A stretch of 31,495 nt of DNA from a virus (lineage: Duplodnaviria; Heunggongvirae; Uroviricota; Caudoviricetes), in IMG/VR virus record IMGVR_UViG_2778261428_000002. One strand, written 5' to 3'. This document shows, in pieces, positions 1 through 31,495 of this stretch (its first letter is position 1; every line of letters starts with the position of its first letter). Both the position numbers and the translations under genes were made by a program. The notes beneath the pieces were generated by a model. It searched no databases. It saw nothing but the letters and a program-made list of their open reading frames with translations, and was not told the origin of the DNA.

Positions 1-1200
1 ATGCTGACCGATACCAAGCTGAAAAACCTCAAAGCGCGGGAAAAACTTTATAAAGTTGCAGACCGTGATGGGCTGTATGTAACCGTATCTCCCAATGGAT
101 TGGTGACGTTTCGCTATGACTATCGAATCAATGGTCGTCGTGAAACGTTAACGATTGGTCGCTATGGTGACGGTATTTCTCTGGCGCAGGCGCGCGAAAA
201 ATTAGTGGAAGCTAAAAAACGCGTAAATGCAGGAATATCGCCCGCTGGAGAGAAGCGTGACGGTAAAACAAAGCGAAAAGAAGAAAAGACACTCCACGAT
301 TTTACCGTCAGCTACATGAAACACACCCGGCTGGCGGACAGCACAAGGGCGATGAAGCAAAGCATTATCGACAGAGACATCACCCCAGTATGGGGGCGCA
401 AGCTGCTGTCAGAGATAACCCCCTCTCTCCTACGTGAGTATTGCGACAAGATAAAAGCGCGTGGTGCGCCAGCGACGGCGATTCAGGTTCGCAATATCGT
501 TAGTGCGGTATTTAAGTTCGCCGCGCTTCACGGCGACTATTACCCCAATCCTGCCGAAGAGGTTTTACCGGCTTCAATTGCGACATTCGAAGCGCGCGAC
601 AGGGCGCTCAAGCCAGAGGAGATAGGCTGGTTTTTCAATCAGCTTGAACAAACGGGTACATTACCCACCATCAAGCTGGCCATTAAATTGGTTTTATTAA
701 CGATGGTGCGTAAAAGTGAACTGCTGAACGCGCCGTGGGGTGAGGTTAATTTTAATGCCTGCCTTTGGACGATTGACGCCAGCCGGATGAAGGGATCACG
801 GGATCATAATGTTTATCTGTCCCGGCAGGCACAGGACATTCTGATTGCCCTGAAAATGTGCGCAGGAAGCAGTGATTGGGTTTTGCCTTCATGCAATCAG
901 TCGTCGCATAAGACCATGTCGGCGGCGACCTTAAACCGGGTCATTAATCTTACGGTTAAGCAGGCGCAGGAACGGGGGATCAGGCTGGCGTCGTTTTCCG
1001 TTCACGATATGCGCCGAACGGCCTCGACGTTATTGCATGAGGCGGGGTTTAATTCCGACTGGATAGAAAAATGCCTCGCGCACGAGGAAAGAAGCGTCAG
1101 AGCCGTTTATAACAAAGCGGAATACGCAGAGCAGCGCCGTGATATGTTGCAGCAGTGGGCGGATATGGTTGATGGGTGGATCAAGCAATACCGCCCGTAA
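1..1200 (+). CDS. int: Tyrosine integrase, P4/CP4-57 family
   Basis: 399-aa ORF. N-terminal arm-binding region typical of P4-type integrases (LTDTKLKNLK...YKVADRDGLYVTVSPNG). C-terminal catalytic residues present: HDMRRT (HxxR), LAHEE, VYNKAEY (Tyr). Family assignment is from memory of the fold, not a search. Confidence 0.9.
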   Translation: MLTDTKLKNLKAREKLYKVADRDGLYVTVSPNGLVTFRYDYRINGRRETLTIGRYGDGISLAQAREKLVEAKKRVNAGISPAGEKRDGKTKRKEEKTLHDFTVSYMKHTRLADSTRAMKQSIIDRDITPVWGRKLLSEITPSLLREYCDKIKARGAPATAIQVRNIVSAVFKFAALHGDYYPNPAEEVLPASIATFEARDRALKPEEIGWFFNQLEQTGTLPTIKLAIKLVLLTMVRKSELLNAPWGEVNFNACLWTIDASRMKGSRDHNVYLSRQAQDILIALKMCAGSSDWVLPSCNQSSHKTMSAATLNRVINLTVKQAQERGIRLASFSVHDMRRTASTLLHEAGFNSDWIEKCLAHEERSVRAVYNKAEYAEQRRDMLQQWADMVDGWIKQYRP

Positions 1201-1440
1201 GTACTATGCGGGGATCTTGGTACCAGAGCGCTTTGGTGCTTTGGCCAGATTCTTCTGTACCGCACTGTCAATATGGTGATGGTTATTTTCCTGCCGAGTC
1301 TTGAGCCAGCGTTCCACTTCCTCTTTGTCCCACGCGACGGCGCGCTTCGTTAGCGCAAAACGTTGGGAAACAGGCCTTTTTGCTCCAACGCATAAATCGT
1401 ACTTTCAGAGAGTGGCACCATCTGTAAAAGCACGTTTTTT

Positions 1441-1818
1441 CTAATGGCAATTTTCATTGTTTTCCCCATGCCGTTCGGCGTTCAGGTGTTGCCACTGCGC
1501 TGCAATCCGCTTCATCACCGCATTCCCCTCCGGGATCACCTCCTGCGGCTCTTTCATCAACATTATCCGCCCCCGGATAACGATCAGCGCCTGTTCCAGC
1601 AGGTCATAGTCCAGATAACAGAGGTCGGGAATATCCAGTTGCCACACGTAGCCATTCCATGCAGAAAGCAGTACCTGCGCAGCCGCGCGTCCGCCGGTGG
1701 TTTCTGTGAGAGCAACGTCGACAAGGGTATTGACAGCAAGGCGGTATTCCTCTGGCGTTACGCAAAGTCTTTGTCGTTGGGTTTCTTGCGTTGCCAGAGC
1801 CTTAAATATTTCGTTCAT
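1441..1818 (-). CDS. Hypothetical protein, 125 aa, last gene of the early operon downstream of the primase
   Basis: Complete ORF on the same strand 10 bp downstream of the primase stop. No motif I can recognise. Confidence 0.55.
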   Translation of the reverse strand: MNEIFKALATQETQRQRLCVTPEEYRLAVNTLVDVALTETTGGRAAAQVLLSAWNGYVWQLDIPDLCYLDYDLLEQALIVIRGRIMLMKEPQEVIPEGNAVMKRIAAQWQHLNAERHGENNENCH

Positions 1819-1827
1819 AACATTTCC

Positions 1828-4482
1828 TTATCGTTGAAAAACCCAACACTTCACCGTCGCCGGGTGGCGCGATGCGGCTGGGTAACGGCGGTTAAATTCA
1901 GCGTTGATGCCGCTGTTAACCGTTCTGACTTCAATAAACTTGTGGGTACGGCTGGTTTTCAGTACCCGCTTTAAATCGCTGACTGGTGGGATCTGCTGGC
2001 GACGTTCGGTGGCCAGTTGAATAAAGTGGTTAAGGTTGACGGCGATAAGCTGTTCATCGCGCGAGTGGTTGAGCTGTGGTTCGTCGTCGCCATCGAGGAA
2101 GTCGAAAATATCCCAGAACTCCTGCACCAGAGGGTGGTCGGCGCTGATGGCCTGCTGGCGCTCCAGACTGAGGCGGATAAACATTTCTCTGGTTGCCTGT
2201 AGCTGCTCCTTCGTGACCGGAATAACCAGCGCCAGCGCGTCGAGCAGCGCCATAAGCTGGGCGTGGTTTTTAATGATGCGGATATGGCGAATATCGGGGT
2301 GGGCGTGAAGCTGCTGCTCGTATAGCGGGATCTGCCGGTTGACGCACTCCAGCACGGCCTGTTCCGCCAGCGCTGCTTTCAGCATAAAGCCGGAAAGCTG
2401 TTCCACCGGCAGGCGTTCGAGCTGCTCGGCAGCGACCTTGGTCTGAGTATTCTGGCCGCTGCGGTCGGTGTACAGGTGAATAATACGTTCCAGCACCGGG
2501 TTAGAGGCGCTAACGTCGGCGTTTTGCGCAATCACAATCGAGCCCCGGAACGGAGGTTCATAGGTCTCGTTACCGCTGTTACGCAGACCGCGAGACCGCA
2601 CTGACCGCCCGTTATAGGCGGTTTTTAGCTCTTCCCAATCAAAGCCGCGTTGCTTTGCACCCTCCTGATTACGGTCACCCTCGATCAGCACCACCGGCAT
2701 GTTCGCCACCTGCGCAAAGTTGCGCGCGCGGGCGGCCAGCGTTGATTTAGACGGATCGAAACCTTCATAGTCGCGTCGGCCTAACAGCTTCCAGAGAAAC
2801 TCTATCAGCGTGGTTTTGCCGCTGCCGGGTTCGCCAACGATTTCCAGAAACGGAAAGCTCTTGTGCTTGTCGCGGATCTGTTCGGCAAACATCGTCCCAA
2901 GCCAGAACGCCAGCGCCACAAAGCCCTTTGCGCCAAACGCCTGCCAGAGTAGCTGGGGCCACTGGCTGTCCATCTGTTTTAAATTGTCGTTCAGCGTCAG
3001 GCTGACCGACTGGTTCAGGCTTTTAAGGCTGAGTTTGCCCATGTCGAAGAAGTCTTCTTCGTTGAGTGTGTACAGCCGACCATCGCGAACGGCCAGATCG
3101 TTGAACACGTAAGCGCGGTATTCTTTGCTGTAGCCGATAAAATCAGTGGTCTGGACAGTTTTGATTTTGGGAAGCTGCTTGAGCAGCAACTTATCTAACT
3201 GCTGACTGGTGCCGGTGAAGATGCCGCCCTGCGCGATATGCAGCAGGCGCTTTTTGAATTCTGAGCCGCTGGAAAGTTGGGAGCCGGTGAAGGTGTTTTT
3301 TATCGGCGGCGTGTCGTCCGGGAAGTTAATGCGAAAGTAATACCAGCTTTCGTCGGTGATGGTGTTGGCCTGATAGTAGAGGGCGGTCGGGTAGCAGTTG
3401 GCGATCTCCACCACGGCGGACGACTCTTTCAGCGCCTTCTGTTTCAGCTCTTCTTCGCTCAGGTCGTCATTGGAGAATGAGATACTTTCATGCACCCGCA
3501 TATAGCGGTCAATATCCAGCTTGAACCAGAACAGGCGGCTGTCAAACTCGAAGTGGAACTCTTTACGCTCTGTCTGTTCGTGCATCAGCAGGGCTTTGGC
3601 GGCGGGAGAGGTGGCGATCAGCAGAGAGCCGTAGTAGCGGTATTTCTTCACTAGCTCTGGGTTAAGCCGGTCGCGTTGGTGCAAATCGTTCCAGTCCAGC
3701 TTGCTGCGGGAATGCGGCGTCTGTGCGGCGGCTGCGCTCCAGCCTTCGTCCCGGCTGCGCTTTACCCATCGCCGGGTATAGCTCATGCCCGCCTTGTCGT
3801 TATCCAGCGCCCAGACCAGTAAAGGGCGCTTTTTATCCACGAACAGCGCGGCCAGTTGGCTTAACGCCTGCGCCGGATAGTTGTTACAGGTCATCAGGGA
3901 AACGGCGGCAATGCCGTGGTGGTGCAGGGCGATAGCGTCAAAAATGCCCTCAACCAGCCAGATCTCCTGCTGTTCTTCCAGCTTCAGCGTTGGCAATAGC
4001 CACCATAGCCCGCTGTAAGCGCCGTGAAAGTTGGCTTTGCGATCGCCGAAACGCTGTGGGCGGTCAACGATCCGCTCCCACCACACGCCGTCAGCCAGCG
4101 GGAAACGTACCGTCGCTGAACCGATATCACGCCGTGGGTCGTAGTAGTTCTCTTGAGTGTAACAGTCACGGATCAGCGAAAGGTCAAAGCCGCGCATCTC
4201 GCGCAGGTAGGCATCGGCGGCGGCCTGTGGGTTTTCCGGGGTTGGGGGATATCTGTCTGACCAGCTTTCAAACAGATCCGGGTACATATCTTTGATGTGG
4301 ATTTCGGCATTGCATTTATTCAGGCGACCGCAGCGCAATACCCACGGGCTGATGGCATTGGTGTACAGCTCTTTTTTCTGGCAGTCCGGGCAGATGCCCT
4401 GCCGCAGCCAGTCGCCCTGTTCTTTAAAGGAAAAGTCGGCCAGTAGTCGCCGCGTAATTTCCTGATGAAGTTGTGGTTGCAT
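1828..4482 (-). CDS. P4 alpha-like primase-helicase (zinc-finger primase plus D5-type NTPase)
   Basis: 884-aa ORF. N-terminal Cys cluster (CPDCQKK...CGRLNKC), acidic TOPRIM-like segment (LVEGIFDAIALHHHG...LDNDKAG), Walker A (GEPGSGKTT) and downstream hhhhEGD Walker B-like motif (VVLIEGD). Confidence 0.85.
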   Translation of the reverse strand: MQPQLHQEITRRLLADFSFKEQGDWLRQGICPDCQKKELYTNAISPWVLRCGRLNKCNAEIHIKDMYPDLFESWSDRYPPTPENPQAAADAYLREMRGFDLSLIRDCYTQENYYDPRRDIGSATVRFPLADGVWWERIVDRPQRFGDRKANFHGAYSGLWWLLPTLKLEEQQEIWLVEGIFDAIALHHHGIAAVSLMTCNNYPAQALSQLAALFVDKKRPLLVWALDNDKAGMSYTRRWVKRSRDEGWSAAAAQTPHSRSKLDWNDLHQRDRLNPELVKKYRYYGSLLIATSPAAKALLMHEQTERKEFHFEFDSRLFWFKLDIDRYMRVHESISFSNDDLSEEELKQKALKESSAVVEIANCYPTALYYQANTITDESWYYFRINFPDDTPPIKNTFTGSQLSSGSEFKKRLLHIAQGGIFTGTSQQLDKLLLKQLPKIKTVQTTDFIGYSKEYRAYVFNDLAVRDGRLYTLNEEDFFDMGKLSLKSLNQSVSLTLNDNLKQMDSQWPQLLWQAFGAKGFVALAFWLGTMFAEQIRDKHKSFPFLEIVGEPGSGKTTLIEFLWKLLGRRDYEGFDPSKSTLAARARNFAQVANMPVVLIEGDRNQEGAKQRGFDWEELKTAYNGRSVRSRGLRNSGNETYEPPFRGSIVIAQNADVSASNPVLERIIHLYTDRSGQNTQTKVAAEQLERLPVEQLSGFMLKAALAEQAVLECVNRQIPLYEQQLHAHPDIRHIRIIKNHAQLMALLDALALVIPVTKEQLQATREMFIRLSLERQQAISADHPLVQEFWDIFDFLDGDDEPQLNHSRDEQLIAVNLNHFIQLATERRQQIPPVSDLKRVLKTSRTHKFIEVRTVNSGINAEFNRRYPAASRHPATVKCWVFQR

Positions 4483-4570
4483 TGCCAGTACCTTTATTCA
4501 GGTAATACTTACCCGTCGCATAGACACGTTGTTTATGCGTTGTGGTTGTGAGTCTTTTATTTACTGAGCG

Positions 4571-4801
4571 TTACGCGATTTTCTGTTTTTGCAGAAATTG
4601 CCCGCGTGTGGATAGTGGTATGTGTATCTTAGGATTCGGGCAACCGCTCGGTACCACCGTTCCCATCACGGTTTCCATTGCGATAAATGAAAACGAACAG
4701 TTAACGTTTTTGCACTGGTAATAGAGCTTACGTACCAGCGGTGACATATATTCGCTGCTGCGAATTATCGCCTTACCGTCGCAGTGTGGGCATTTCATCA
4801 T
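4571..4801 (-). CDS. ogr: Ogr/Delta-family zinc-finger late transcription activator
   Basis: CPHCDGKA...YYQCKNVNCSFSF matches the Cys4 motif of P2 Ogr / P4 Delta. I moved the start to the ATG-ATG at 4801 (MMKCPHC), which has GGAGA 6 nt upstream; the ORF track start at 4819 has no RBS. Confidence 0.85.
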   Translation of the reverse strand: MMKCPHCDGKAIIRSSEYMSPLVRKLYYQCKNVNCSFSFIAMETVMGTVVPSGCPNPKIHIPLSTRGQFLQKQKIA

Positions 4802-4837
4802 GTCCTGTCTCCTTACCACTTTTAACTAACTGAAACA

Positions 4838-5044
4838 CTAACGCTTTTCGTTAACGGACTGACGAAATAGTGTGATGCCGTTCAAAAAAATGATTCTTGC
4901 CATGCTGGACATCGAACGGTTCTGATCCAGCGCTAATGCTTCCAGTTCCGCGATTTCAGCGGGGAGCAGGCGCATTGCCACCGGTTTGTTCGACATCACC
5001 CCGCGAGGCGCTCTTGAGCGTAAGACGTTCTCATTTGTTTTCAT
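4838..5044 (-). CDS. Small putative DNA-binding regulator, first gene of the early lytic operon (Cox/Apl-like position)
   Basis: 68-aa ORF divergent from the HTH repressor gene and immediately upstream of ogr-like and primase genes. Start uncertain (Met 1, 17 or 24). Confidence 0.45.
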   Translation of the reverse strand: MKTNENVLRSRAPRGVMSNKPVAMRLLPAEIAELEALALDQNRSMSSMARIIFLNGITLFRQSVNEKR

Positions 5045-5124
5045 GGTGGTATATTGTGGTTATTAACATTACACAATCTATAATTCCCTCAATTGAGTGA
5101 ATTGTCAATGGTAATTATATCCAA
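5045..5124. promoter_or_regulatory. Divergent switch region between early-operon regulator and HTH repressor gene
   Basis: 80-bp AT-rich gap between divergent starts. Contains TTGTG-N13-CACAA and repeated CAATTG/GAATTG motifs that could be operators. Promoter elements not resolved. Confidence 0.4.
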
Positions 5125-5460
5125 ATGAAAGAATTTGGCATCCGTTTGAAGGAAGAACGTATCCGACTTGGACTTGATCAAGACGGCTTTGGACAACTTG
5201 GGGGCGTGAAGAAAAACGCACAAAGCAACTATGAGAATGGGTTGCGCAAGCCGGACAGTGACTATCTTGCTGGCATAGCGGCAGCGGGAGTTGATGTTCT
5301 GTATGTTCTAACAGGCAACCGCACGCCTGTGGTTACGTTGTCCAATAAAGAGAGTGTGTTGGTGGAAAACTATCGTTCTGCTACGCCAGAACACCAGTCC
5401 ACCCTTGACACGGTTAGCGCTGCGCTTGCGCAACCGATGAATTGTCGAAAAGTACAATGA
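5125..5460 (+). CDS. XRE-family helix-turn-helix repressor (prophage C/CI-like, or cassette regulator)
   Basis: 111 aa. N-terminal HTH_XRE pattern (IRLKEERIRLGLDQDGFGQLGGVKKNAQSNYENGLRKPDSDYLAGIAAAGVDVLYVLTG). Divergent from the early operon. Confidence 0.75.
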   Translation: MKEFGIRLKEERIRLGLDQDGFGQLGGVKKNAQSNYENGLRKPDSDYLAGIAAAGVDVLYVLTGNRTPVVTLSNKESVLVENYRSATPEHQSTLDTVSAALAQPMNCRKVQ

Positions 5461-5491
5461 TTTATTAATTTCAGCTTATTAGGGAGTAATT

Positions 5492-6580
5492 ATGGCAAAT
5501 GTCGGCTTTTCTTTTGAGGGGGTGATGATTGAAAGAATTATTGCTCATCGAATCTTCCCAAGGTCTCCCGATAAGCAAATGGTTCCACCTAAGTTAAGTA
5601 ATCAGTTAATAACGTTAGAACAAGATGCTTTGGATGCACTACAGGTTCGTATAACAGAAGCCTTAGGTAATAAATCTCATGGCATTGAAATGTCTATCAC
5701 TGATACCGGTGATGATAGTTTTTTTGCACTGACAACGTCTGTACTACATGTTGAAGGCGAATCATTTATTAACGTATCTAAGCGATTGGCGCATAAGTTA
5801 ACAGAAGCTCAATATAGTGCGGGGAAGGTTTCCGGTGGTGTGTTAGTAATCATTACGGGAAAAATTGGTGAACAAGCCTGCCCATTCTTTGCTGTACTGC
5901 GTGCTGAAATGCAAAACGGATTTCGGACCAATGATACCCCAGAGAAAATAGCGATGGAGTATATTGCTGACTTATTACTTACACCAACTCAGCGGCTTTA
6001 TAAAATAGGAGTGTTGATTGAGTGTGAGTCAGGCCATGAATTGATTGATGGTCGTTGTGATACGCAATATTATCGTTCATTTTTATTTGATCACTTGATG
6101 ACATCGACGGAAACTAAAAATGCTGCGGGGTATTTTTACAGTGTTTTTCTTGGAATGGGGATCGAAAAATCCTCCAAGAAATTGACGCAGGATTTTTTTG
6201 AACATACTCGAAATTTCATTAATCAGGCTCCAGTTGATGAAGAAACTAAGTTTGATTTACACGAGTCATTACGTTCTGAACTGAGAAGTCAGAAAGCAAC
6301 TTTGAGTACCGCTTCGTTTGCTACGGAACATCTTCCTCAAGAATTACAGACGAGCTATCAGTCATTTATGGCTCAAAAAGGTTTTCCGCAGAATGCAGTG
6401 TCTAAAGATACTGATTATATTAAGAAAAAGCTTCGTCGTAGAAGTAAATTAGTGTTTACAAGCGATGTATGGATATCCATACCACCAGATCAAGTAAAAG
6501 AACTGGTACAGATTGAACAAACAGATGATGATGAGTCAACTACACTTAAAGTCAAAGGGCGGTTGAAAAGTCAAGAATGA
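5492..6580 (+). CDS. Hypothetical 362-aa protein, partner of the RSH-domain protein; function unknown
   Basis: AGGGAG RBS 8 nt upstream. AT-rich relative to the phage backbone. Stop overlaps the next start (ATGA). No catalytic motif recognised. A weak, memory-based resemblance to NA37/YejK nucleoid-associated proteins is unverified. Confidence 0.7.
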   Translation: MANVGFSFEGVMIERIIAHRIFPRSPDKQMVPPKLSNQLITLEQDALDALQVRITEALGNKSHGIEMSITDTGDDSFFALTTSVLHVEGESFINVSKRLAHKLTEAQYSAGKVSGGVLVIITGKIGEQACPFFAVLRAEMQNGFRTNDTPEKIAMEYIADLLLTPTQRLYKIGVLIECESGHELIDGRCDTQYYRSFLFDHLMTSTETKNAAGYFYSVFLGMGIEKSSKKLTQDFFEHTRNFINQAPVDEETKFDLHESLRSELRSQKATLSTASFATEHLPQELQTSYQSFMAQKGFPQNAVSKDTDYIKKKLRRRSKLVFTSDVWISIPPDQVKELVQIEQTDDDESTTLKVKGRLKSQE

Positions 6581-7578
6581 TGAGTATAGAGGATTTTAGA
6601 CGTTATCTGGTTGAAAACCATGCTGCTTATGAAGCATGGGGTAAACATATTGCGTCTGAAATCAATGCGGCTTTGATTGAACAACTTGGTGAAGGGGCCG
6701 CCCAGCTCTTCATCAAGGTACCACCCACTCCGAGAGTTAAAGGTATCGAGTCCGCATTAGGGAAGGTTGGTCGTAAAGGTTATAACAACCCTGTTCAGCA
6801 GATGACGGATCTCGTTGGCGTTCGTTTTGTCGTTTTACTTTCTGAAGATATTGAGACAATCTGTAAAATCATTCAGAATAATGAACAATGGATAGCTGTT
6901 GTTTCTAAAGATTATCAGGATGAAATAGAGGTAAACCCTAAACTATTTGATTATCAATCAAAGCATTTTGAAATAAGGCCAAAGATAAATAGCGTTATAT
7001 CGGGAGTTAATATTACAACTGATATGTGCTGTGAAGTACAAATTAGAACATTATTGCAGCATGCGTATGCAGAATTAGTTCATGATAGCGTTTATAAACC
7101 TGTTGGCCCAGTACCGAAAAAAGCGGAGCGCCAAATTGCGCGTAGTATGGCTTTGATGGAAACAACAGATGAATTATTTTGTAATACAATGCGGCTTTTA
7201 TGTGATACTAATAAACCAAGAAATGATTTTTTAAAGGAGTTAAAAGATTTTTATATAAATAAAATTGGGAGACAGTATTTAAATCAGGAAGATAAAATAA
7301 ATTATTGTTTTTTAGATGAGTATAGGTCGTTTATACAAGAAGATCTTTTGACTAATCTAATCGACCTTCTTGATAAGAAAAAATATATATCATATAAAAT
7401 CCAACAAAGGGCTACTGCCAATCTTTTTTTTGCGCAGCCAGTGGTCATTTTTACTTACTGGCTGGCAATAAATGAAGACAGTAATAAATTACAGCAAGAA
7501 TGGCCGTTACCTGGATATTTGAACGAATTGAGAATGATTTTAAGTGATGTTGGTGTAAGTAGCGGTATTGGATATTAA
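6577..7578 (+). CDS. RelA/SpoT-homologue (RSH) nucleotidyltransferase-domain protein, small alarmone synthetase / toxSAS-like
   Basis: 333 aa. Synthetase motifs in order: PRVKGIESALGKVGRKG, MTDLVGVRFVV (DxxGxR), DYQ...FDYQSKHFEI, CCEVQIRTLLQHAYAELVH (ExQxRT...H.aE). C-terminal ~140 aa is Lys-rich and very AT-rich. Stop converges on gene D with a 4-bp overlap. Confidence 0.75.
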   Translation: MMSIEDFRRYLVENHAAYEAWGKHIASEINAALIEQLGEGAAQLFIKVPPTPRVKGIESALGKVGRKGYNNPVQQMTDLVGVRFVVLLSEDIETICKIIQNNEQWIAVVSKDYQDEIEVNPKLFDYQSKHFEIRPKINSVISGVNITTDMCCEVQIRTLLQHAYAELVHDSVYKPVGPVPKKAERQIARSMALMETTDELFCNTMRLLCDTNKPRNDFLKELKDFYINKIGRQYLNQEDKINYCFLDEYRSFIQEDLLTNLIDLLDKKKYISYKIQQRATANLFFAQPVVIFTYWLAINEDSNKLQQEWPLPGYLNELRMILSDVGVSSGIGY

Positions 7579-12087: not shown

Positions 12088-12384
12088 CTATGCGTCCGGG
12101 GTATCCGCTGCTTCCGGCGAGGTCTGCGGCAAAAAACCGACAAGCGCCGTACCGAAGGCCGTCAGGTCGATAAAATCCAGTTGCGCCACCTCATGCTTAT
12201 TCAGCGCCGGTGCGGTGATGCGGGGCAGAACGGTGGTCAGTGCGTCGACGTTGAGGCTCAGCAGCTCCACCAGACTGACACCGCGCAGGTCGCCGCCCAG
12301 CGGTTTACGGATCTGGAACTCGACAAATTCGGTTTCGCCGCGTTTCAGGGGAGTATTCAGGGTCACGGTTTTACGTTCGTTCAT
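12088..12384 (-). CDS. E: Tail assembly chaperone E (gpE-like); E+E' frameshift product extends to about 11963
   Basis: 98-aa ORF directly upstream of T. A -1 frame stays open from the slippery site to a TGA overlapping the T start, giving an E+E' product of roughly 140 aa as in P2. Confidence 0.8.
   Translation of the reverse strand: MNERKTVTLNTPLKRGETEFVEFQIRKPLGGDLRGVSLVELLSLNVDALTTVLPRITAPALNKHEVAQLDFIDLTAFGTALVGFLPQTSPEAADTPDA
12130..12136 (-). other. Programmed -1 ribosomal frameshift slippery heptamer (T TTT TTG) for E/E'
   Basis: Minus-strand GGT TTT TTG in the E frame, 14 codons before the E stop. The -1 frame is open for about 55 codons beyond. Confidence 0.7.
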
Positions 12385-14208: not shown

Positions 14209-14967
14209 TTAATTCAGGATAATCAGTTCTGATGTAGCGCTGGCTGGCTTTCCGCCTACGGTATAGCGAATCCCTACCGTTGAGAATGTCAGGCCGTGGA
14301 AGATATCGCGCATTTCCGGGATGTCGTTAACCGAGATAATCATCCGGCCCTGCATGGTGCGCGCCAGCTCTGCCATACGCTGGTACTGCTCAAGGCCAAA
14401 CGGTACGCCGTAGCCTTCGGTTTTCCAGTATGGCGGGTCGCAGTAGAACAGGGTATGCGGGCGGTCATAGCGGCGAATACAGTCGGCCCAGTCCAGATTT
14501 TCAATACAGACGCGCGCCAGCCGCAGATGGGCGGCGGATAAATCTTCCTCCATACGCAGCAGGTTCAGGCGTGGCGGTGAGGTGGTGGCGGTACCGAACG
14601 TGCGGCTTTCCACCTTGCCGCCGAACGCCAGCTTTTGCAGATAGTAGAAGCGCGCCGCGCGCTGGATGTCGGTCAGCGTTTCTTCCGGGGTGATCTGGAG
14701 CCAGCGGTACATTTCGCGGCTGACCAGCGACCATTTAAACTGGCGGACAAACTCTTCTAAATGGTGCTGGAGTACCCGGTAGAGGTTGGTAACGTCACCG
14801 TTGATATCATTCAGCACCTCGGCCTGAGCGGGGCGTTTCATAAAGAACAGCGCCGCCGCTCCGCAAAATGGCTCGACGTAACAGCGGTGTTCAGGAAACA
14901 GCGGCAGGATGTGTTTCGCCAGTCGGCGTTTGCCGCCGATCCACGGAATAACGGGTAACGTATTCAT
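14209..14967 (-). CDS. dam: DNA adenine methyltransferase (Dam-like, N6-adenine)
   Basis: 252 aa. SAM-binding FCGAAALFF and catalytic DPPY (YCDPPYWKTEGY). Sits between tail-fibre genes and FI. Confidence 0.85.
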   Translation of the reverse strand: MNTLPVIPWIGGKRRLAKHILPLFPEHRCYVEPFCGAAALFFMKRPAQAEVLNDINGDVTNLYRVLQHHLEEFVRQFKWSLVSREMYRWLQITPEETLTDIQRAARFYYLQKLAFGGKVESRTFGTATTSPPRLNLLRMEEDLSAAHLRLARVCIENLDWADCIRRYDRPHTLFYCDPPYWKTEGYGVPFGLEQYQRMAELARTMQGRMIISVNDIPEMRDIFHGLTFSTVGIRYTVGGKPASATSELIILN

Positions 14968-19496: not shown

Positions 19497-20095
19497 TACT
19501 GCGGTCCTCCGGTATTGCTACCCCCGCGCTCCACGCCTGTATGCGTATGGGTATGGACGGTGACGCCGTTAGAGGTAAAGCTGCCGCCGCTGTGGGTGTA
19601 AGCGCCTTTAAGCGTGCCGCCTTTTTTAACCGACAGCGTGGCGGTTTCCAGATGCTGAGTGCAGACGACGAGCGGTGTATCCAGCGTGACGCGGGTGCTG
19701 GCTTCGACCAGTGCGGTTTTGATGCCGGTCGCTTTTAACGCGCTGGAGCGCGGATCGTATTCAATCACCGCACCATCGGGGTAAACGCTATGGTGAACCT
19801 GTTCATCCAGCAGCGGGGCGGGGCTGGCGTCAGAGTAAATGGCCGGAAGCGCCACGGCGGTGGTTAACTCTCCGCTTAAACAGAGCAGTAACACCTGCTC
19901 GCCTGTTGATGGCCGCCACCACGTCCGGGCATCATCGGCGCGTAGCGTCAGCCATGGTATCCAGTTGGTGGTCAGTTCACCAGTGTGAATGCGTACTCGA
20001 TCGCCCTTCACCTCTTCAACGGTGCCGGTACGGATCAGGTTCTCTATGCGCCGGTGCAGTTCGGCGAGGTTGGCTGGGTGGTTTGCGTCGCTCAT
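19496..20095 (-). CDS. V: Baseplate central spike/assembly protein V (gpV-like)
   Basis: Start set at ATG MSDANHPANLAEL; the ORF track start at 20125 is a TTG. C-terminal region resembles P2 V as I recall it (RVTLDTP.VVCT, KGGT). Confidence 0.85.
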   Translation of the reverse strand: MSDANHPANLAELHRRIENLIRTGTVEEVKGDRVRIHTGELTTNWIPWLTLRADDARTWWRPSTGEQVLLLCLSGELTTAVALPAIYSDASPAPLLDEQVHHSVYPDGAVIEYDPRSSALKATGIKTALVEASTRVTLDTPLVVCTQHLETATLSVKKGGTLKGAYTHSGGSFTSNGVTVHTHTHTGVERGGSNTGGPQ

Positions 20096-24562: not shown

Positions 24563-24751
24563 ATGGCGAAGAATAGCAGTCCTGCCAGCCGATACGGTAT
24601 CAAGGTCGTAAAAAGAGACAGTATGAGTGGGCAGTTCGTACCCGTCGAAATGAAACTGGACGGCCCGGAAGGTGAGCGTGTGATTAAAAAGTCGGCAGAA
24701 CGTATTTATGCCAGACACAACAAAGTCATTAAGGCGCTGGCTAACCGATGA
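24563..24751 (+). CDS. Putative antitoxin partner of Doc (family not recognised)
   Basis: 62 aa with GAGGT RBS. Stop overlaps the doc start (ATGA). Confidence 0.55.
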   Translation: MAKNSSPASRYGIKVVKRDSMSGQFVPVEMKLDGPEGERVIKKSAERIYARHNKVIKALANR

Positions 24752-25125
24752 TTGATGCACATTTGGTGATTGGAATTCACGATTTTATTCTTGCTCATGA
24801 GCCGGGATTGGTTGGTTATCAGGATGCTGGCCGGGTCGAGGCAACACTGGCGCGGGTGGATAACCGTATTCTGTATGAGCAGATGAATGATATTTTCCAG
24901 ATCGCCGCATCTTATGCGGTTGCCATCGCCAGAGGGCACGTTTTTGCTGATGCCAACAAGCGAACGGCACTGGTGACGGCGTTGACATACCTTGATATGC
25001 AGGGTGTGAACCTCAAGCGAACACAAAAGCTGGAAGATATTATGGTGGATGTGGCTGAGGGAACGCTGAATCTGGATGATTTAGCCGATATTTTCTATAC
25101 CCTTAGTGATGTAAATGCTTCCTGA
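24748..25125 (+). CDS. doc: Doc (death-on-curing) / Fic-family toxin
   Basis: 125 aa. Fic/Doc active-site motif HVFADANKRT (HxFx(D/N)(A/G)NKR). Confidence 0.85.
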   Translation: MIDAHLVIGIHDFILAHEPGLVGYQDAGRVEATLARVDNRILYEQMNDIFQIAASYAVAIARGHVFADANKRTALVTALTYLDMQGVNLKRTQKLEDIMVDVAEGTLNLDDLADIFYTLSDVNAS

Positions 25126-26062: not shown

Positions 26063-26725
26063 TCACTCTGTGGACTGGTCGGGCGGGTTATTGCGAATTT
26101 GCCGCTCCAGTTGCTCAATCAGCTTTTTCACGCCGACGTTCTCATCCAGTTGTAGTGCGCGCAGGAACTGCGCCAGCGCCTCCTGCGGCTGGCTTTCGCT
26201 TTGTGCCAGCCCCAATGCCTTGTGCAGGCGAGCGCGAACCTGATCCGGCATGTCCTGATCGGCTAACAGCCCGGCAAAGGCCAGCAGGCTGTCCAGCGCC
26301 GCAAAGGTACCGGCGGTAAGCTGTTTCAGGGCGGTGTCGGCGACTTCTTCAGCCACCATGCAGGCGGTCTGCCGCTGGTACTGATCCGGCGTTACCCAGC
26401 CGTGTTTCAGGGCGTGTTCCGCCATGGGGTAGGCAGCGGGAAAGTCGCCGGTATCCAGCGTCCAGAGCAGCACCGTCATAAACACATCGTCCTGCTGTTG
26501 GCTGTCGGCAGCCAGAACGCCGCTTACCCACGGCTGGTAATCGGGCAGCAGTTCACCCTTAACCTCGATTTTGCGTTCAATGGACTGGATCGCTTTCAAG
26601 CGGCGTTTATCGGTTGCCAGCTTTGCCAGCATTAGTTCATAGCCGTTGGCGTAGGTCTGGTTTTCCTGTTGATTTGCGGCCTGCGCCTGATGGCGCAGCA
26701 GGTGGCGGCGGGCAGGCGTCATCAT
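26063..26725 (-). CDS. M: Terminase small (endonuclease) subunit M (gpM-like)
   Basis: 220 aa. Resembles P2 gpM as I recall it (DDVFMTVLLWTLDTGDF, ENVGVKKLIEQLERQ). Confidence 0.85.
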   Translation of the reverse strand: MMTPARRHLLRHQAQAANQQENQTYANGYELMLAKLATDKRRLKAIQSIERKIEVKGELLPDYQPWVSGVLAADSQQQDDVFMTVLLWTLDTGDFPAAYPMAEHALKHGWVTPDQYQRQTACMVAEEVADTALKQLTAGTFAALDSLLAFAGLLADQDMPDQVRARLHKALGLAQSESQPQEALAQFLRALQLDENVGVKKLIEQLERQIRNNPPDQSTE

Positions 26726-27741
26726 ACGTCTTTATCCTCAAACTTGATATTCTCAAACAGGCAACCGCAGCCGAAGTCTTCCACCACAAAGGCATCGTTG
26801 GAGGACTCGAAGTTCTTTACCCGGTCACGTTTGGGGTTATCAATAATGGCGCGGCGGCGAGTGCCTTTCTGGACATAGATAGACAGGTTACTGAAGGCGG
26901 TGACCAGAATGGTGTTGCGCGGGAAACCCGGCACGCGCACGGCAGGGCGACCGCCGATGGTTTTCTGGCTGACCAGAATCTGCCCCGCCAGTTTTTCGCT
27001 GTTCTCATTGTGCTGGTTGAGTATCGGGAAGTATTTGTCGTGCAGGACGCCACGGCCACAAATGGCGACCAGATCTGCGCCGTCGACATGCCATTCGTCA
27101 ATCAGGTTTTCTTCGCCGTCATTGACCATGACGTCCAGATTCTCATAGTCGCCGCCTTTGCCAATGATGATTTTGCCGGAACCTTCCACACCTTCGTTCA
27201 TGACGCGTTCCGGGGCGTGGTCGCGATACTGCTGCAGCCAGCCTTTGTTAACGTCCTGCAGAAGGGGGTAACGCTGGAAGTCGGTCTGGGCTGCAACGAG
27301 GATACCGTTGAAGCCAATCAGGATGCGGTCTAATCCCTGTCGCCGGGTGATGCTGTCGCGCACGCGGATCTGAAAATCCGGGTGGGCGGCCCATGCGTCC
27401 AGTTTGGCGTATTTCAGCGCGGTGTCGTAGTTGGTTTTTTCGCAGCGGTAGCGGTTAGTCGTCATCGACGTGGGGTCGACGGGTTCACGCTCACGCTGGC
27501 TGGTATCGGTGCGGCTGGCCGTGGGGCGATCAATGCCGATGCCGACTTTTTCTCCTTCCTGATCCACCACTTCATGGACGTTGATTTTGGTCAGGAATTC
27601 TACGGACGCCTGAATTTTGGTTTCCAGCGTCTGCTGTACGGAAGGTTCTACCGTGAATTCGACGGCGGCGCTCTGGACACCGGACAGCCCGGCGACGGTT
27701 TCAACGTAAGCGTTGTATTTTAAGCGGGTTTCGTTACGCAT
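26722..27741 (-). CDS. N: Major capsid protein N (gpN-like)
   Basis: 339 aa. Resembles P2 gpN as I recall it (TRLKYNAY, FTVEPSVQQTL, GKGGDYENLD). Confidence 0.9.
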   Translation of the reverse strand: MRNETRLKYNAYVETVAGLSGVQSAAVEFTVEPSVQQTLETKIQASVEFLTKINVHEVVDQEGEKVGIGIDRPTASRTDTSQREREPVDPTSMTTNRYRCEKTNYDTALKYAKLDAWAAHPDFQIRVRDSITRRQGLDRILIGFNGILVAAQTDFQRYPLLQDVNKGWLQQYRDHAPERVMNEGVEGSGKIIIGKGGDYENLDVMVNDGEENLIDEWHVDGADLVAICGRGVLHDKYFPILNQHNENSEKLAGQILVSQKTIGGRPAVRVPGFPRNTILVTAFSNLSIYVQKGTRRRAIIDNPKRDRVKNFESSNDAFVVEDFGCGCLFENIKFEDKDV

Positions 27742-27751
27742 CGGGGGTTCC

Positions 27752-28579
27752 TTAACAGTCGGTTTTCAGGTCGGTGTTGCCACCGGTGGCAGGCTGGCGC
27801 GATGGTGTGGCCGGTTGCTTTGCAAGCTGAGTTTTCAGCGTGGAATAATCGGCCTGTAGCTGCTGATGCTGCGTTTGCAGTTCAGACAGCTCAGCGCGAA
27901 TTTGGTCGACCTGTTCGCTACAGAACGTCGCTACTTCCTCCACCGCCAGATGCACGTCGTCCCGTTGCTGGTCGTCGTGGTTCTGCTTTTTACTTAACAG
28001 CGCCTTGATGCGGGTAAACAGCGATTCGCCGCTGCTTTCCTCCACTTCTTCAAACTCCAGTTCAATCTCTTCTGCCACGCTGAAAATGTTCTCCGGCGAG
28101 CGCTTACGCGCCGCCAGCGGGTTGCTCTGCGCGCTGGCGCAGAAGGAGAGCATTTCGGTGCCGAGACTGGCCGGATCGTCGGTGACTGCCAGCCCGACCA
28201 GATAGGCTTTGCCTGTATCGGCAAATTTCGGATCGACTTCCACCGAGGTATAAACCTTCTGCCCTTTGCGGTTCATTTCGACCAATGAATCCGTTGGGGC
28301 CAGACGTGCCAGCAGCGCCAGTTTGCCTTTCAGGGGGCCGTCTTCGGCGATCTCTTCTTTCTTCACCATCGCCACGTCGCCGTAGCGTTGGAACGGGCCG
28401 TCCGGCAGGATGCCTTTCAGGTGCTCCAGATTAATGCGCGCGCCGTACACTTTTGGGCTGTATGTATCGGCCATTTGCTCGATCCACTGGCGTTCAATAG
28501 TGCGCTTGTCGCAGGTTGCGCCTTCTACGGCGATACGCACCCATTTAGAGAGCAGTTTTTTCTTTGGCTTTTTGTCCAT
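27752..28579 (-). CDS. O: Capsid scaffolding protein O (gpO-like)
   Basis: 275 aa, acidic coiled-coil C-terminal half, first gene of the head operon. Confidence 0.85.
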   Translation of the reverse strand: MDKKPKKKLLSKWVRIAVEGATCDKRTIERQWIEQMADTYSPKVYGARINLEHLKGILPDGPFQRYGDVAMVKKEEIAEDGPLKGKLALLARLAPTDSLVEMNRKGQKVYTSVEVDPKFADTGKAYLVGLAVTDDPASLGTEMLSFCASAQSNPLAARKRSPENIFSVAEEIELEFEEVEESSGESLFTRIKALLSKKQNHDDQQRDDVHLAVEEVATFCSEQVDQIRAELSELQTQHQQLQADYSTLKTQLAKQPATPSRQPATGGNTDLKTDC

Positions 28580-28734: not shown

Positions 28735-30518
28735 ATGCCGCCAGACATCGAAAAACATCTGCTTGCCCTTCAGGATGAAGATCCACGCCGCAAAGCCCGC
28801 TATCTGTACTGGCAGGGTTTTCGCATCGCGCGGATCGCCGAACTGTTGGGGGTGAAAGTTACCACGCTGCATAGCTGGAAGCGGCGCGACGGCTGGGATG
28901 AATCCGCCCCGCTGGAGCGGGTGACGGCGGTGACCGAGGCGCGTCTGATCCAGCTCACGGTGAAGGAAAATAAAGAGGGGAAGGATTTTAAGGAGATCGA
29001 CCTGCTCTGGCGGCAGATGGAGCGCGGGGCAAGGGTTGAACGCTATCAGCAGGGAGGCAATGAGGTCGACCTGAATCCTGCTCTTGCGAAGCGTAACGCC
29101 GGGCCGCGCAGACAGCCGGAAACCAACCATATCAGCGAGGAGCAGGCGGAGAAGCTGAAACAGCTATTTCTGGACGGGCTGTATCCGCACCAGAAACACT
29201 GGTACCGCGCCGGACTGGAACACCGTATCCGCGATATCAACAAGTCGCGCCAGATTGGGGCGACGATGTTCTTCGGGCGGGAAGGGTTTATGGATGCGGT
29301 GGAAAGTGGGCGCAACCAGATCTTTCTCTCTGCTTCCAAAGCGCAGGCGCACCAGTCCGCCAGTACATTGTCGATTTTGCTCGTGAGGCGGATGTTGAGC
29401 TGAAAGGCGAAGTCATTCACCTGCCGCATAATGATAGCCGGATGTATTTTCTCGGCACTAATGCCCGCACCGCCCAGACCTATCATGGCAACCTGTATCT
29501 GGATGAATACTTCTGGATACACCGCTTTCTGGAACTGCGCCGTAACGCGGCGGGGATGGCCAGCCAGAAGCGCTGGCGGCAAACCTACTTCTCCACGCCG
29601 TCCAGCATCACCCATGAAGCCTATAAGTTCTGGACAGGGCAACTGTTCAACAAGGGCAGGCCGAAGAGCGAACAGATTCGACTGGATATCAGCCATCGGG
29701 CGCTGTCGGCAGGGCGGTTGTGTGAAGACGGCCAGTGGCGGCAAATCGTCACCGTTGAGGATGCCATCAATCAGGGTTATGACCTGTTCGACCTTGAGCA
29801 ACTCAGGCTGGAGAACTCGCCGGAAGAGTTCGCCAACCTGTTTATGTGCCAGTTTATTGACGATACCGCATCGGTATTCCCGCTCAGCATGTTGCAGGGT
29901 TGCATGGTCGATAGCTGGGAAGTCTGGGACGACTACAAGCCGTTTGCCCTGCGTCCGCTCGGCGAACGCTCGGTATGGGTGGGCTACGATCCGGCGTTAA
30001 GCGGCGACAGCGCCGGATGCGTGGTGGTCGCGCCGCCGGTCATTGAGGGCGGCAAGTTTCGGGTAATTGAAAAGCACCAGTGGCACGGGATGGACTTCGC
30101 GGCGCAGGCGGAAAATATCCGCAAAATTACCGAGCGCTATAACGTGACTTACATCGGTATTGACGTGACCGGCATCGGCCACGGCGTGCATCAACTGGTG
30201 AAACAGTTCTTCCCGGCAGTGCAGGCATTCTCTTATTCCCCAGAAGTGAAACAGCGTCTGGTGCTGAAAACGCTGGACGTTGTCCGTAAACGCCGACTGG
30301 AGTTTGACGCCGGATGGACGGATCTGGCGCAGGCATTTATGGCGATCCGCAAAACCCTGACTCCGTCCGGGCGTCAGGTAACCTTCGAGGCCAGCCGTTC
30401 GGAAGAAGTCTCCCACGCGGATCTGGCATGGGCGTGTATGCACGCCATTATCAATGAACCACTGGAAAGCTCCGGCGGCGCGAACAGCGGGCGGGGCTTA
30501 ATTAAGGTGTACGGATGA
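28735..30518 (+). pseudogene. P: Terminase large (ATPase) subunit P (gpP-like), interrupted by a frameshift
   Basis: Two adjacent ORFs in different frames (28735-29403 and 29442-30518) together cover a full terminase. The second frame reads [21 protein letters not shown] through the first ORF's stop. Total length is 3n-1, so a 1-nt loss near 29350-29362. Confidence 0.7.
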
Positions 30519-31495
30519 ATAACACAATGGCTTTCACCTTCGGTGAACCCGAAGCTCTGCTGGACAGGCGGGAAATACTGAACTATCTGGAGTGCGTAGA
30601 CTTTGGCAAATGGTATGCGCCGCCGGTGGATTTTAATTCGCTGGCGCTGTCGTTCCGCGCTTCGGCACATCATACCAGCCCGATCTGCGTGAAGCGCAAT
30701 GTGCTGGTTGGTACCTTCATACCTCATACGTTGTTGACCCGGCAGGCGTTCAGCCGCCTTGCGCTGGACTATCTGGTGTTCGGCAATGCCTATCTGGAGC
30801 GGCAGGATAACCGGCTGGGCCAGCCGTTAACGCTGGTGCCTGCGCTGGCGAAGTATGTCCGGCGCGGCAAGGCGCTGGACAGCTATTTCTTTGTTCAGCC
30901 CGGTAAAGTGGATCATGAGTTTGCGTCGGGCAGTATCGGCCACCTACTGGAGCCGGATATCAATCAGGAAATCTACGGCCTGCCTGAATACCTCTCTGCG
31001 CTGAACGCGGCATGGCTGGATAACTCCGCCACGCTGTTTCGCCGTCGCTACTACAAGAACGGCAGTCATGCCGGTTTCATCCTCTACCTGAGCGACCCAG
31101 CCCATAACGAGGCGGATATTGGGGCGTTACAGGAGGCGCTGGCGAATAGCCGTGGCCCCGGCAACTTCCGCAATCTGCTGATGTATCTGCCGAACGGCAA
31201 ACCGGACAGCGTAAAGGTGATCCCGATTGGCGAGGTGGCGGCGAAAGATAACTTCTCCGATATTAAAAGCGTCAGCCGTGACGACCAGTTAGCCGCGCAC
31301 CGGGTACCGCCCGCGCTCATGGGCGTGGTACCGAGTAACGCCGGTGGCTTTGGTGATGCCATCAAAGCGGCGAAGGTATTCAACTGCAATGAGATCGAGC
31401 CGCTGCAGGAACGCTTTAAGGAACTGAACGACTGGTTGGGGCTGGAGGTTATTCGCTTCAAAAAGTACCGCCTTGCCGACGACGATTCAGAGTAA
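30515..31495 (+). CDS. Q: Portal protein Q (gpQ-like)
   Basis: 326 aa. Start overlaps the P stop (ATGA). Ends at the window edge with TAA. Confidence 0.85.
   Translation: MNNTMAFTFGEPEALLDRREILNYLECVDFGKWYAPPVDFNSLALSFRASAHHTSPICVKRNVLVGTFIPHTLLTRQAFSRLALDYLVFGNAYLERQDNRLGQPLTLVPALAKYVRRGKALDSYFFVQPGKVDHEFASGSIGHLLEPDINQEIYGLPEYLSALNAAWLDNSATLFRRRYYKNGSHAGFILYLSDPAHNEADIGALQEALANSRGPGNFRNLLMYLPNGKPDSVKVIPIGEVAAKDNFSDIKSVSRDDQLAAHRVPPALMGVVPSNAGGFGDAIKAAKVFNCNEIEPLQERFKELNDWLGLEVIRFKKYRLADDDSE

Follow-up and report, generated by a model that had tools for sequence, protein, structure and literature searches.

The gpP-type large terminase gene at positions 28735-30518 of the window (the whole 31,495-nucleotide stretch of DNA that was analysed) is divided into a 222-aa open reading frame, ORF1, and a 358-aa open reading frame, ORF2, whose frames lie one base apart. 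We put at about 90% the probability that this frameshift is a genuine heritable one-base deletion in a recently inactivated P2-like prophage undergoing ordinary decay, a reading drawn from the comparison of sequences. On this evidence the window gene is a pseudogene of the P2 gpP-type large terminase family. Full-length gpP homologues measure 583-600 aa, and the window gene lacks the continuous open reading frame of about 590 aa that they possess.

Position of the lesion and organisation of the prophage

The two fragments of the gene and the lesion between them are arranged as follows.

28735-29403, + strand: ORF1, the 5' gpP fragment; native residues M1-Q207, followed by 15 out-of-frame residues and a TGA stop
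29356..29357, + strand: lesion; codon TTC (Phe208) minus one T, CAG TTC CGC becoming CAG TC CGC
29358..30518, + strand: remaining 3' portion of gpP, read in the shifted frame; residues R209-G594 of the native protein
29442-30518, + strand: ORF2, 358 aa; the ATG at 29442 corresponds to native Met237

The site of the lesion was fixed by base-by-base DNA comparison with seven intact alleles (L001, L013, L014, L016, L018, L019 and L021), each of which carries the additional T at 29356/29357. When the two frames are spliced at 29353-29358, leaving a single residue at the junction unspecified, the result is a 594-aa protein identical to P0001 of E. coli wherever a residue is specified; P0001 reads ...AQAHQFRQYIV... 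at the junction. The window gene corresponds exactly to this intact 594-aa allele apart from the missing T, and it measures 1784 nt versus 1785 nt in all four of the RefSeq complete E. coli genomes that carry the gene. An earlier note on this DNA had proposed that a single-nucleotide loss near 29350-29362 splits the large terminase, and the lost T lies inside that interval. Alignment with intact gpP homologues, named there as a check on the proposal, returned a one-base deficit relative to the seven intact alleles.

The window opens with the first codon of a tyrosine integrase gene (1-1200) and closes with the stop codon of a P2-type portal gene, which occupies 30515-31495. The set of P2-like late genes is complete, comprising the tail genes D, U, T, E/E', FII and FI, the fibre and baseplate genes, the lysis genes, X and L, and the genes M, N, O, P and Q. 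The head genes other than P and L are listed here.

26063..26725, - strand: small terminase subunit gpM, intact, 663 nt as in relatives
26722-27741, - strand: major capsid protein gpN, intact, 1020 nt; divergent from P
27752-28579, - strand: scaffold protein gpO, intact, 828 nt; divergent from P
30515..31495, + strand: portal protein gpQ, intact, 981 nt; 4-nt overlap between its start and the P stop

The lengths of these genes, and that of L (468 nt), equal those in the related E. coli GMF054 and L725, and the tail and lysis genes of the window agree with the gene calls in the relative L023. The earlier statement that every other structural gene is intact thus holds for the structural genes, while a non-structural gene of the AlpA family is broken. 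The gpP product is a core hallmark of P2-like viruses (PMC13100340), and the synteny of the window P is that of the gpP family, the gene adjoining the portal gene Q and diverging from O-N-M-L. Bacteriophage P2 gpP has the same domain order (Terminase_5, Terminase_6N and Terminase_6C), an intact length of about 590 aa and the same divergence of Q-P from O-N-M-L; unlike P2 gpP, the window gene is interrupted at codon 208 by the loss of one base.

In GMF054 and L725 the insertion site lies between guaA and yfgI. The intact E. coli allele (P0001; GMF054, L725, CEC15 and 24A16CRGN010) shares this guaA/yfgI site and the gene order, with 97-99.9% DNA identity; in contrast to the window, these four copies have a P gene of 1785 nt with a single 594-aa open reading frame, and an intact 84-aa AlpA gene. 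The element is rare, the P gene occurring at 97% identity or more in only 4 of the 5426 complete E. coli genomes in RefSeq. A near-identity search of the phage collection returned no match, and in a distant search of deposited phages the closest sequences, from P2-like phages of Ralstonia and Burkholderia, reached only about 68% DNA identity. The early or replication module (1441-4482, - strand) encodes an 884-aa toprim-domain protein and a DUF7673 protein together with the AlpA-family protein. Because this early region presumably differs from the A/B/cox set of P2, it marks, to our knowledge, a distinct P2-like lineage whose nearest relatives in DNA are the Ralstonia and Burkholderia phages at that level of identity.

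Recurrence and age of the deleted allele

The same T deletion at 29356/29357 is common to L002, L003, L004, L005, L015 and L017, and was verified at the DNA level in each of these separate datasets.

L002: SRR18104980, deletion seen in DNA
L003: ERZ28627991, deletion seen in DNA
L004: ERZ27316940, deletion seen in DNA
L005: SRR30896179, deletion seen in DNA
L015: GCA_004380805.1, deletion seen in DNA
L017: ERZ918213, human gut metagenome, deletion seen in DNA

At the protein level the exact 222-aa product was found on 42 contigs from NCBI, ENA, JGI and Logan (68 index blocks); these contigs may share one clonal ancestor, and they show that the mutation is real rather than that it is frequent across lineages. 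The 358-aa product was found on 25 contigs. Intact copies are commoner, the identical intact protein being present on 126 contigs and a 99% variant on 373. An exact-pattern scan across the lesion matched intact P on one contig of IMG/VR and on two from JGI metagenomes, and had no match in the GTDB species representatives.

Further changes have accumulated on the frameshifted background. In a sub-lineage represented by L004 an IS150 element is inserted at window position 30491, at the 3' end of the already frameshifted P (junction at 4758-4897 of L004); IS150 copies in 2848 E. coli genomes match the sequence at this junction, and the 362-aa product that results from the insertion, P0148, occurs on 3 contigs. 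In L005 another single base of P is missing, at window position 30471, and the 222-aa product also occurs as a K7N variant. Some members of the protein cluster are partial P proteins (280-317 aa); these were considered as additional lesions and rejected, as they correspond to contig ends.

These observations bear on whether the frameshift could be a sequencing or assembly artefact, the source genome having an intact P. The lost base does fall within a run of two T, the other indel of the window falls within a run of three, and a homopolymer error is probable at the E/E' slip site of the close relative GMF054, which indicates that such errors do occur in data of this kind. However, the context of the lesion is only a TT dinucleotide that is assembled as TT in most other contigs, the identical deletion was confirmed base by base in six independently produced datasets, the truncated product is distributed over four repositories, and descendant alleles bear extra changes on the broken background. 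Recurrence in the six datasets and the 42 contigs, together with the later changes, excludes a one-off sequencing error, and an artefact of any sort is in our view extremely unlikely. The suggestion in the earlier note that a sequencing or assembly error is equally possible therefore does not stand.

The heritable deletion is young. L013 and L021, in which P is intact, differ from the window by the missing T alone over 4.5-5 kb. Comparison with L023 over 21 kb of tail, lysis and cargo DNA shows a single SNP; this SNP is a missense change private to the window, Gly54Asp in the baseplate spike protein V (gpV, - strand, codon 54, position 19935). Since intact and broken alleles differ by a single base over about 5 kb, the P lesion is very recent and the prophage population nearly clonal, in keeping with the recent inactivation that had been proposed earlier. 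The lesion arose within this population beside guaA, and the broken prophage has since been passed on vertically with its host, with decay going on in some of the descendants.

Lesions at other sites are present among the relatives. L016 has a deletion of about 1.4 kb in which window positions 26276-27683 are missing and most of M and N is lost, and L003 a 10-bp deletion in the capsid gene N (window 27600-27609 missing). P0133, from one contig, represents an independent P frameshift near codon 335, and in L007 a G to A change at window position 4464 creates the nonsense codon Q7* in the toprim replication gene. Across the family the lesions conform to the usual picture of random inactivating hits in a vertically inherited prophage. 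Cryptic and defective prophages of E. coli, such as the cryptic prophages of K-12, decay by frameshifts, insertions of IS elements and deletions. The family studied here shares with them point frameshifts, IS150, internal deletions and a nonsense codon in lytic-cycle genes; it is unlike them in being at a very early stage, the window having two lesions only, with all structural genes besides P at full length.

A real frameshift in an ordinary, recently inactivated prophage is an already known kind of event and involves no new mechanism. For annotation, the split terminase is to be treated as a true pseudogene and not as an assembly error, and the prophage is to be scored as packaging-defective and probably excision-defective, though it looks complete to prophage finders. 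The near-identical copies with different single lesions (in P, AlpA, the toprim nonsense codon, IS150 and the M/N deletion) form a natural series for the first steps of prophage decay.

Predicted effect on the terminase

The deletion separates conserved parts of the protein. ORF1 contains the N-terminal gpP-like helix-turn-helix domain (PF06056, Terminase_5, residues 16-73, E=2e-23), and ORF2 contains the complete C-terminal RNaseH-like nuclease domain (PF17289, Terminase_6C, residues 180-338, E=2e-42; 416-574 in native numbering). The Pfam Terminase_6N profile (PF03237), which matches the intact protein over profile positions 2-214, is covered from 2-42 in ORF1 and from 80-214 in ORF2. In P0001 the motifs are a Walker A-like SRQIGAT at 171-177, a Walker B with catalytic glutamate, LYLDE, at 254-258, and STPS at 287-290. 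These positions are based on Pfam, on invariant alignment columns and on the motifs of T4 gp17 (SRQLGKT, DE and TTS), which we take to be the counterparts from which the P0001 motifs may be named. No variation is seen at residues K170-T177, D257-E258 and S287-S290 among 18 homologues (64-97% identity), in which F208 is at least 90% conserved. Neither the single protein nor a profile built from 18 sequences had a significant match among PDB sequences.

The Walker A-like motif is located on ORF1 and Walker B on ORF2, and no single chain holds a complete ATPase domain. A Shine-Dalgarno-like GAGAGGA is present upstream of the ORF1 ATG. In the downstream frame, on the other hand, native Met237 is the first position at which an ATG, GTG or TTG occurs, and its ATG at 29442 is not preceded by a Shine-Dalgarno-like sequence. 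The 29 core residues 208-236 are absent from any pair of ORF1 and ORF2 products.

Translation from the normal start gives 207 native residues that include the helix-turn-helix domain and the Walker A-like loop, after which come 15 junk residues. The Walker B motif with its catalytic glutamate, the STPS motif and the whole nuclease domain are left in the other frame, which has neither a start before Met237 nor a ribosome-binding site, and the ATPase core is cut between its two nucleotide-binding motifs. With the core cut in two, cos cleavage and DNA translocation are predicted to be lost; the broken terminase should neither cleave cos nor translocate DNA, and the prophage by itself should form no infectious particles. 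The division of the ATPase core between the reading frames is consistent with the earlier suggestion that packaging fails unless complemented, and a co-resident P2-like phage could supply the function in trans. Weak re-initiation at Met237 with association of the two fragments is a formally conceivable residual route.

Packaging would be kept if the two frames were used by design, through a programmed -1 ribosomal frameshift, transcriptional slippage or a functional terminase of two chains. A -1 shift at any point between 29356 and 29403 would bring translation back into frame, the downstream frame being open from 29097, and P2-like phages do employ a programmed -1 shift elsewhere, at the TTTTTTG site of E/E', which is present and normal in the window. 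However, the overlap of the frames (29097-29403) contains no X_XXY_YYZ heptamer and no homopolymer of 5 bases or more, and a continuous open reading frame of about 590 aa is found in all listed full-length relatives, at 64% to 100% identity. The allele is simply the intact one minus one base, with no recoding signal evolved, and a two-chain enzyme would depend on an ORF2 that lacks a Shine-Dalgarno sequence and would miss the 29 core residues. Programmed frameshifting of P was rejected for want of a slip signal and of a two-frame architecture conserved among homologues, and we regard retention of packaging by any of these means as barely conceivable. The likeness to the P2 gpE/E' tail assembly chaperones consists of two overlapping frames in one phage gene; gpE/E' has a slippery TTTTTTG and two frames conserved in relatives, whereas the window P has no slip signal and its relatives are single-frame.

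The gpE/E' site of the window lies at about 12125-12131 within the gene region 12088-12384 (- strand), with TTTTTTG on the coding strand. In the complete genome of GMF054 one extra base in this run fuses E and E' into a 140-aa open reading frame, probably through an assembly error.

AlpA-family gene, cargo and the question of domestication

The window carries a second lesion, in the gene beside the integrase.

1204..1457, - strand: AlpA-family helix-turn-helix gene; one base missing at 1363-1365 (+ strand TTT reduced to TT)

The product is reduced to about 35 residues (...EQKGLFPNVLR*) instead of 84, and the C-terminal half of the PF05930 match is gone. Look-up of the 39-aa AlpA fragment gave no match, since no such gene is called, and the neighbouring DUF7673 gene was used for the look-up in its place. 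The deletion is also present in L007 (ERZ27237790) and in L012 (CP181872.1), the latter being 100% identical to window positions 1-5818; the gene is intact in L001 and in L008-L011. L007 and L013 are parts of one contig, which combines the AlpA frameshift and the toprim nonsense codon with an intact P. Occurrence of the AlpA frameshift on a contig with intact P shows that this lesion is older or more widespread than that in P. The AlpA-family product may be an excision directionality factor or an early activator, by an analogy with P4 Vis that we assume to apply, and its frameshift would probably impair excision or early regulation.

The loss of both functions could conceivably have been adaptive, selection for the loss of packaging (and of AlpA) having disarmed the prophage while its cargo or a tailocin-like tail and lysis module was kept. 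The cargo concerned would be the RelA_SpoT/NA37 genes, the GmrSD-like genes, the Doc toxin-antitoxin and Dam. In agreement with such selection, the frameshifted allele has persisted across many samples, the element holds candidate defence cargo, the lesions seen in relatives are all in head, packaging, replication or regulatory genes, and the 21-kb block of tail, lysis and cargo genes shows no change of gene content among 24 contigs. However, the contrast between head and tail is an unfair one, as the sampling focused on the head module while the look-up collapsed places that are mostly the same. Moreover, the capsid, scaffold, portal and small terminase genes (N, O, Q and M) and L are still intact in the window, copies with the identical intact P allele are commoner, and there have been no substitutions since the event, hence no time-depth in which selection could show.

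We consider adaptive domestication very unlikely. The same low weight is given to its more specific form, in which loss of the terminase and AlpA was selected in a successful human-gut E. coli clone that retains a non-spreading, non-excising prophage for its cargo or tailocin-like module; if true, this would allow the first step of prophage domestication to be observed. The fit to a domesticated element claimed in the earlier note is without support, for a one-base allele difference over about 5 kb leaves no signature of selection. Recent inactivation by ordinary decay remains the preferred reading.

Candidate defence or accessory cargo could favour keeping the element. A variable cargo pair is located between a repressor-like helix-turn-helix gene (5125-5460) and gpD.

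5492-7578, + strand: NA37 nucleoid-associated-family protein (362 aa) and RelA_SpoT-domain protein (333 aa)

The RelA_SpoT-domain protein matches PADLOC PDC-S33 (E=1e-13) and is possibly a defence candidate of the toxic alarmone-synthetase type. P2-like phages have known hotspots of anti-phage genes, including a cos-proximal one (PMC9122126), and the cargo of the element fits these.

Gene content at the cargo positions varies between relatives. At the position of the NA37/RelA_SpoT pair, GMF054 has DUF6037, a nucleoid-associated protein and a hypothetical gene instead. A Dam-type adenine methylase gene (14209-14967, - strand) lies between the sheath and tail-fibre genes of the window, and the intergenic cargo region between X and L holds a Doc/Fic-type toxin gene (24748-25125, + strand). 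In L725 the Doc/Fic position is taken by a RelE/ParE toxin-antitoxin pair, and an abortive-infection gene adjoins gpV. Beyond the right end of the window, two DUF262/GmrSD-like genes are situated between the portal gene and yfgI (35290-38519 in L001; 6215-8981 in L013-L019), in keeping with the cos-proximal hotspot of P2-like phages. The pair is present in most relatives and absent in L725, and one of the two genes is split in L018.
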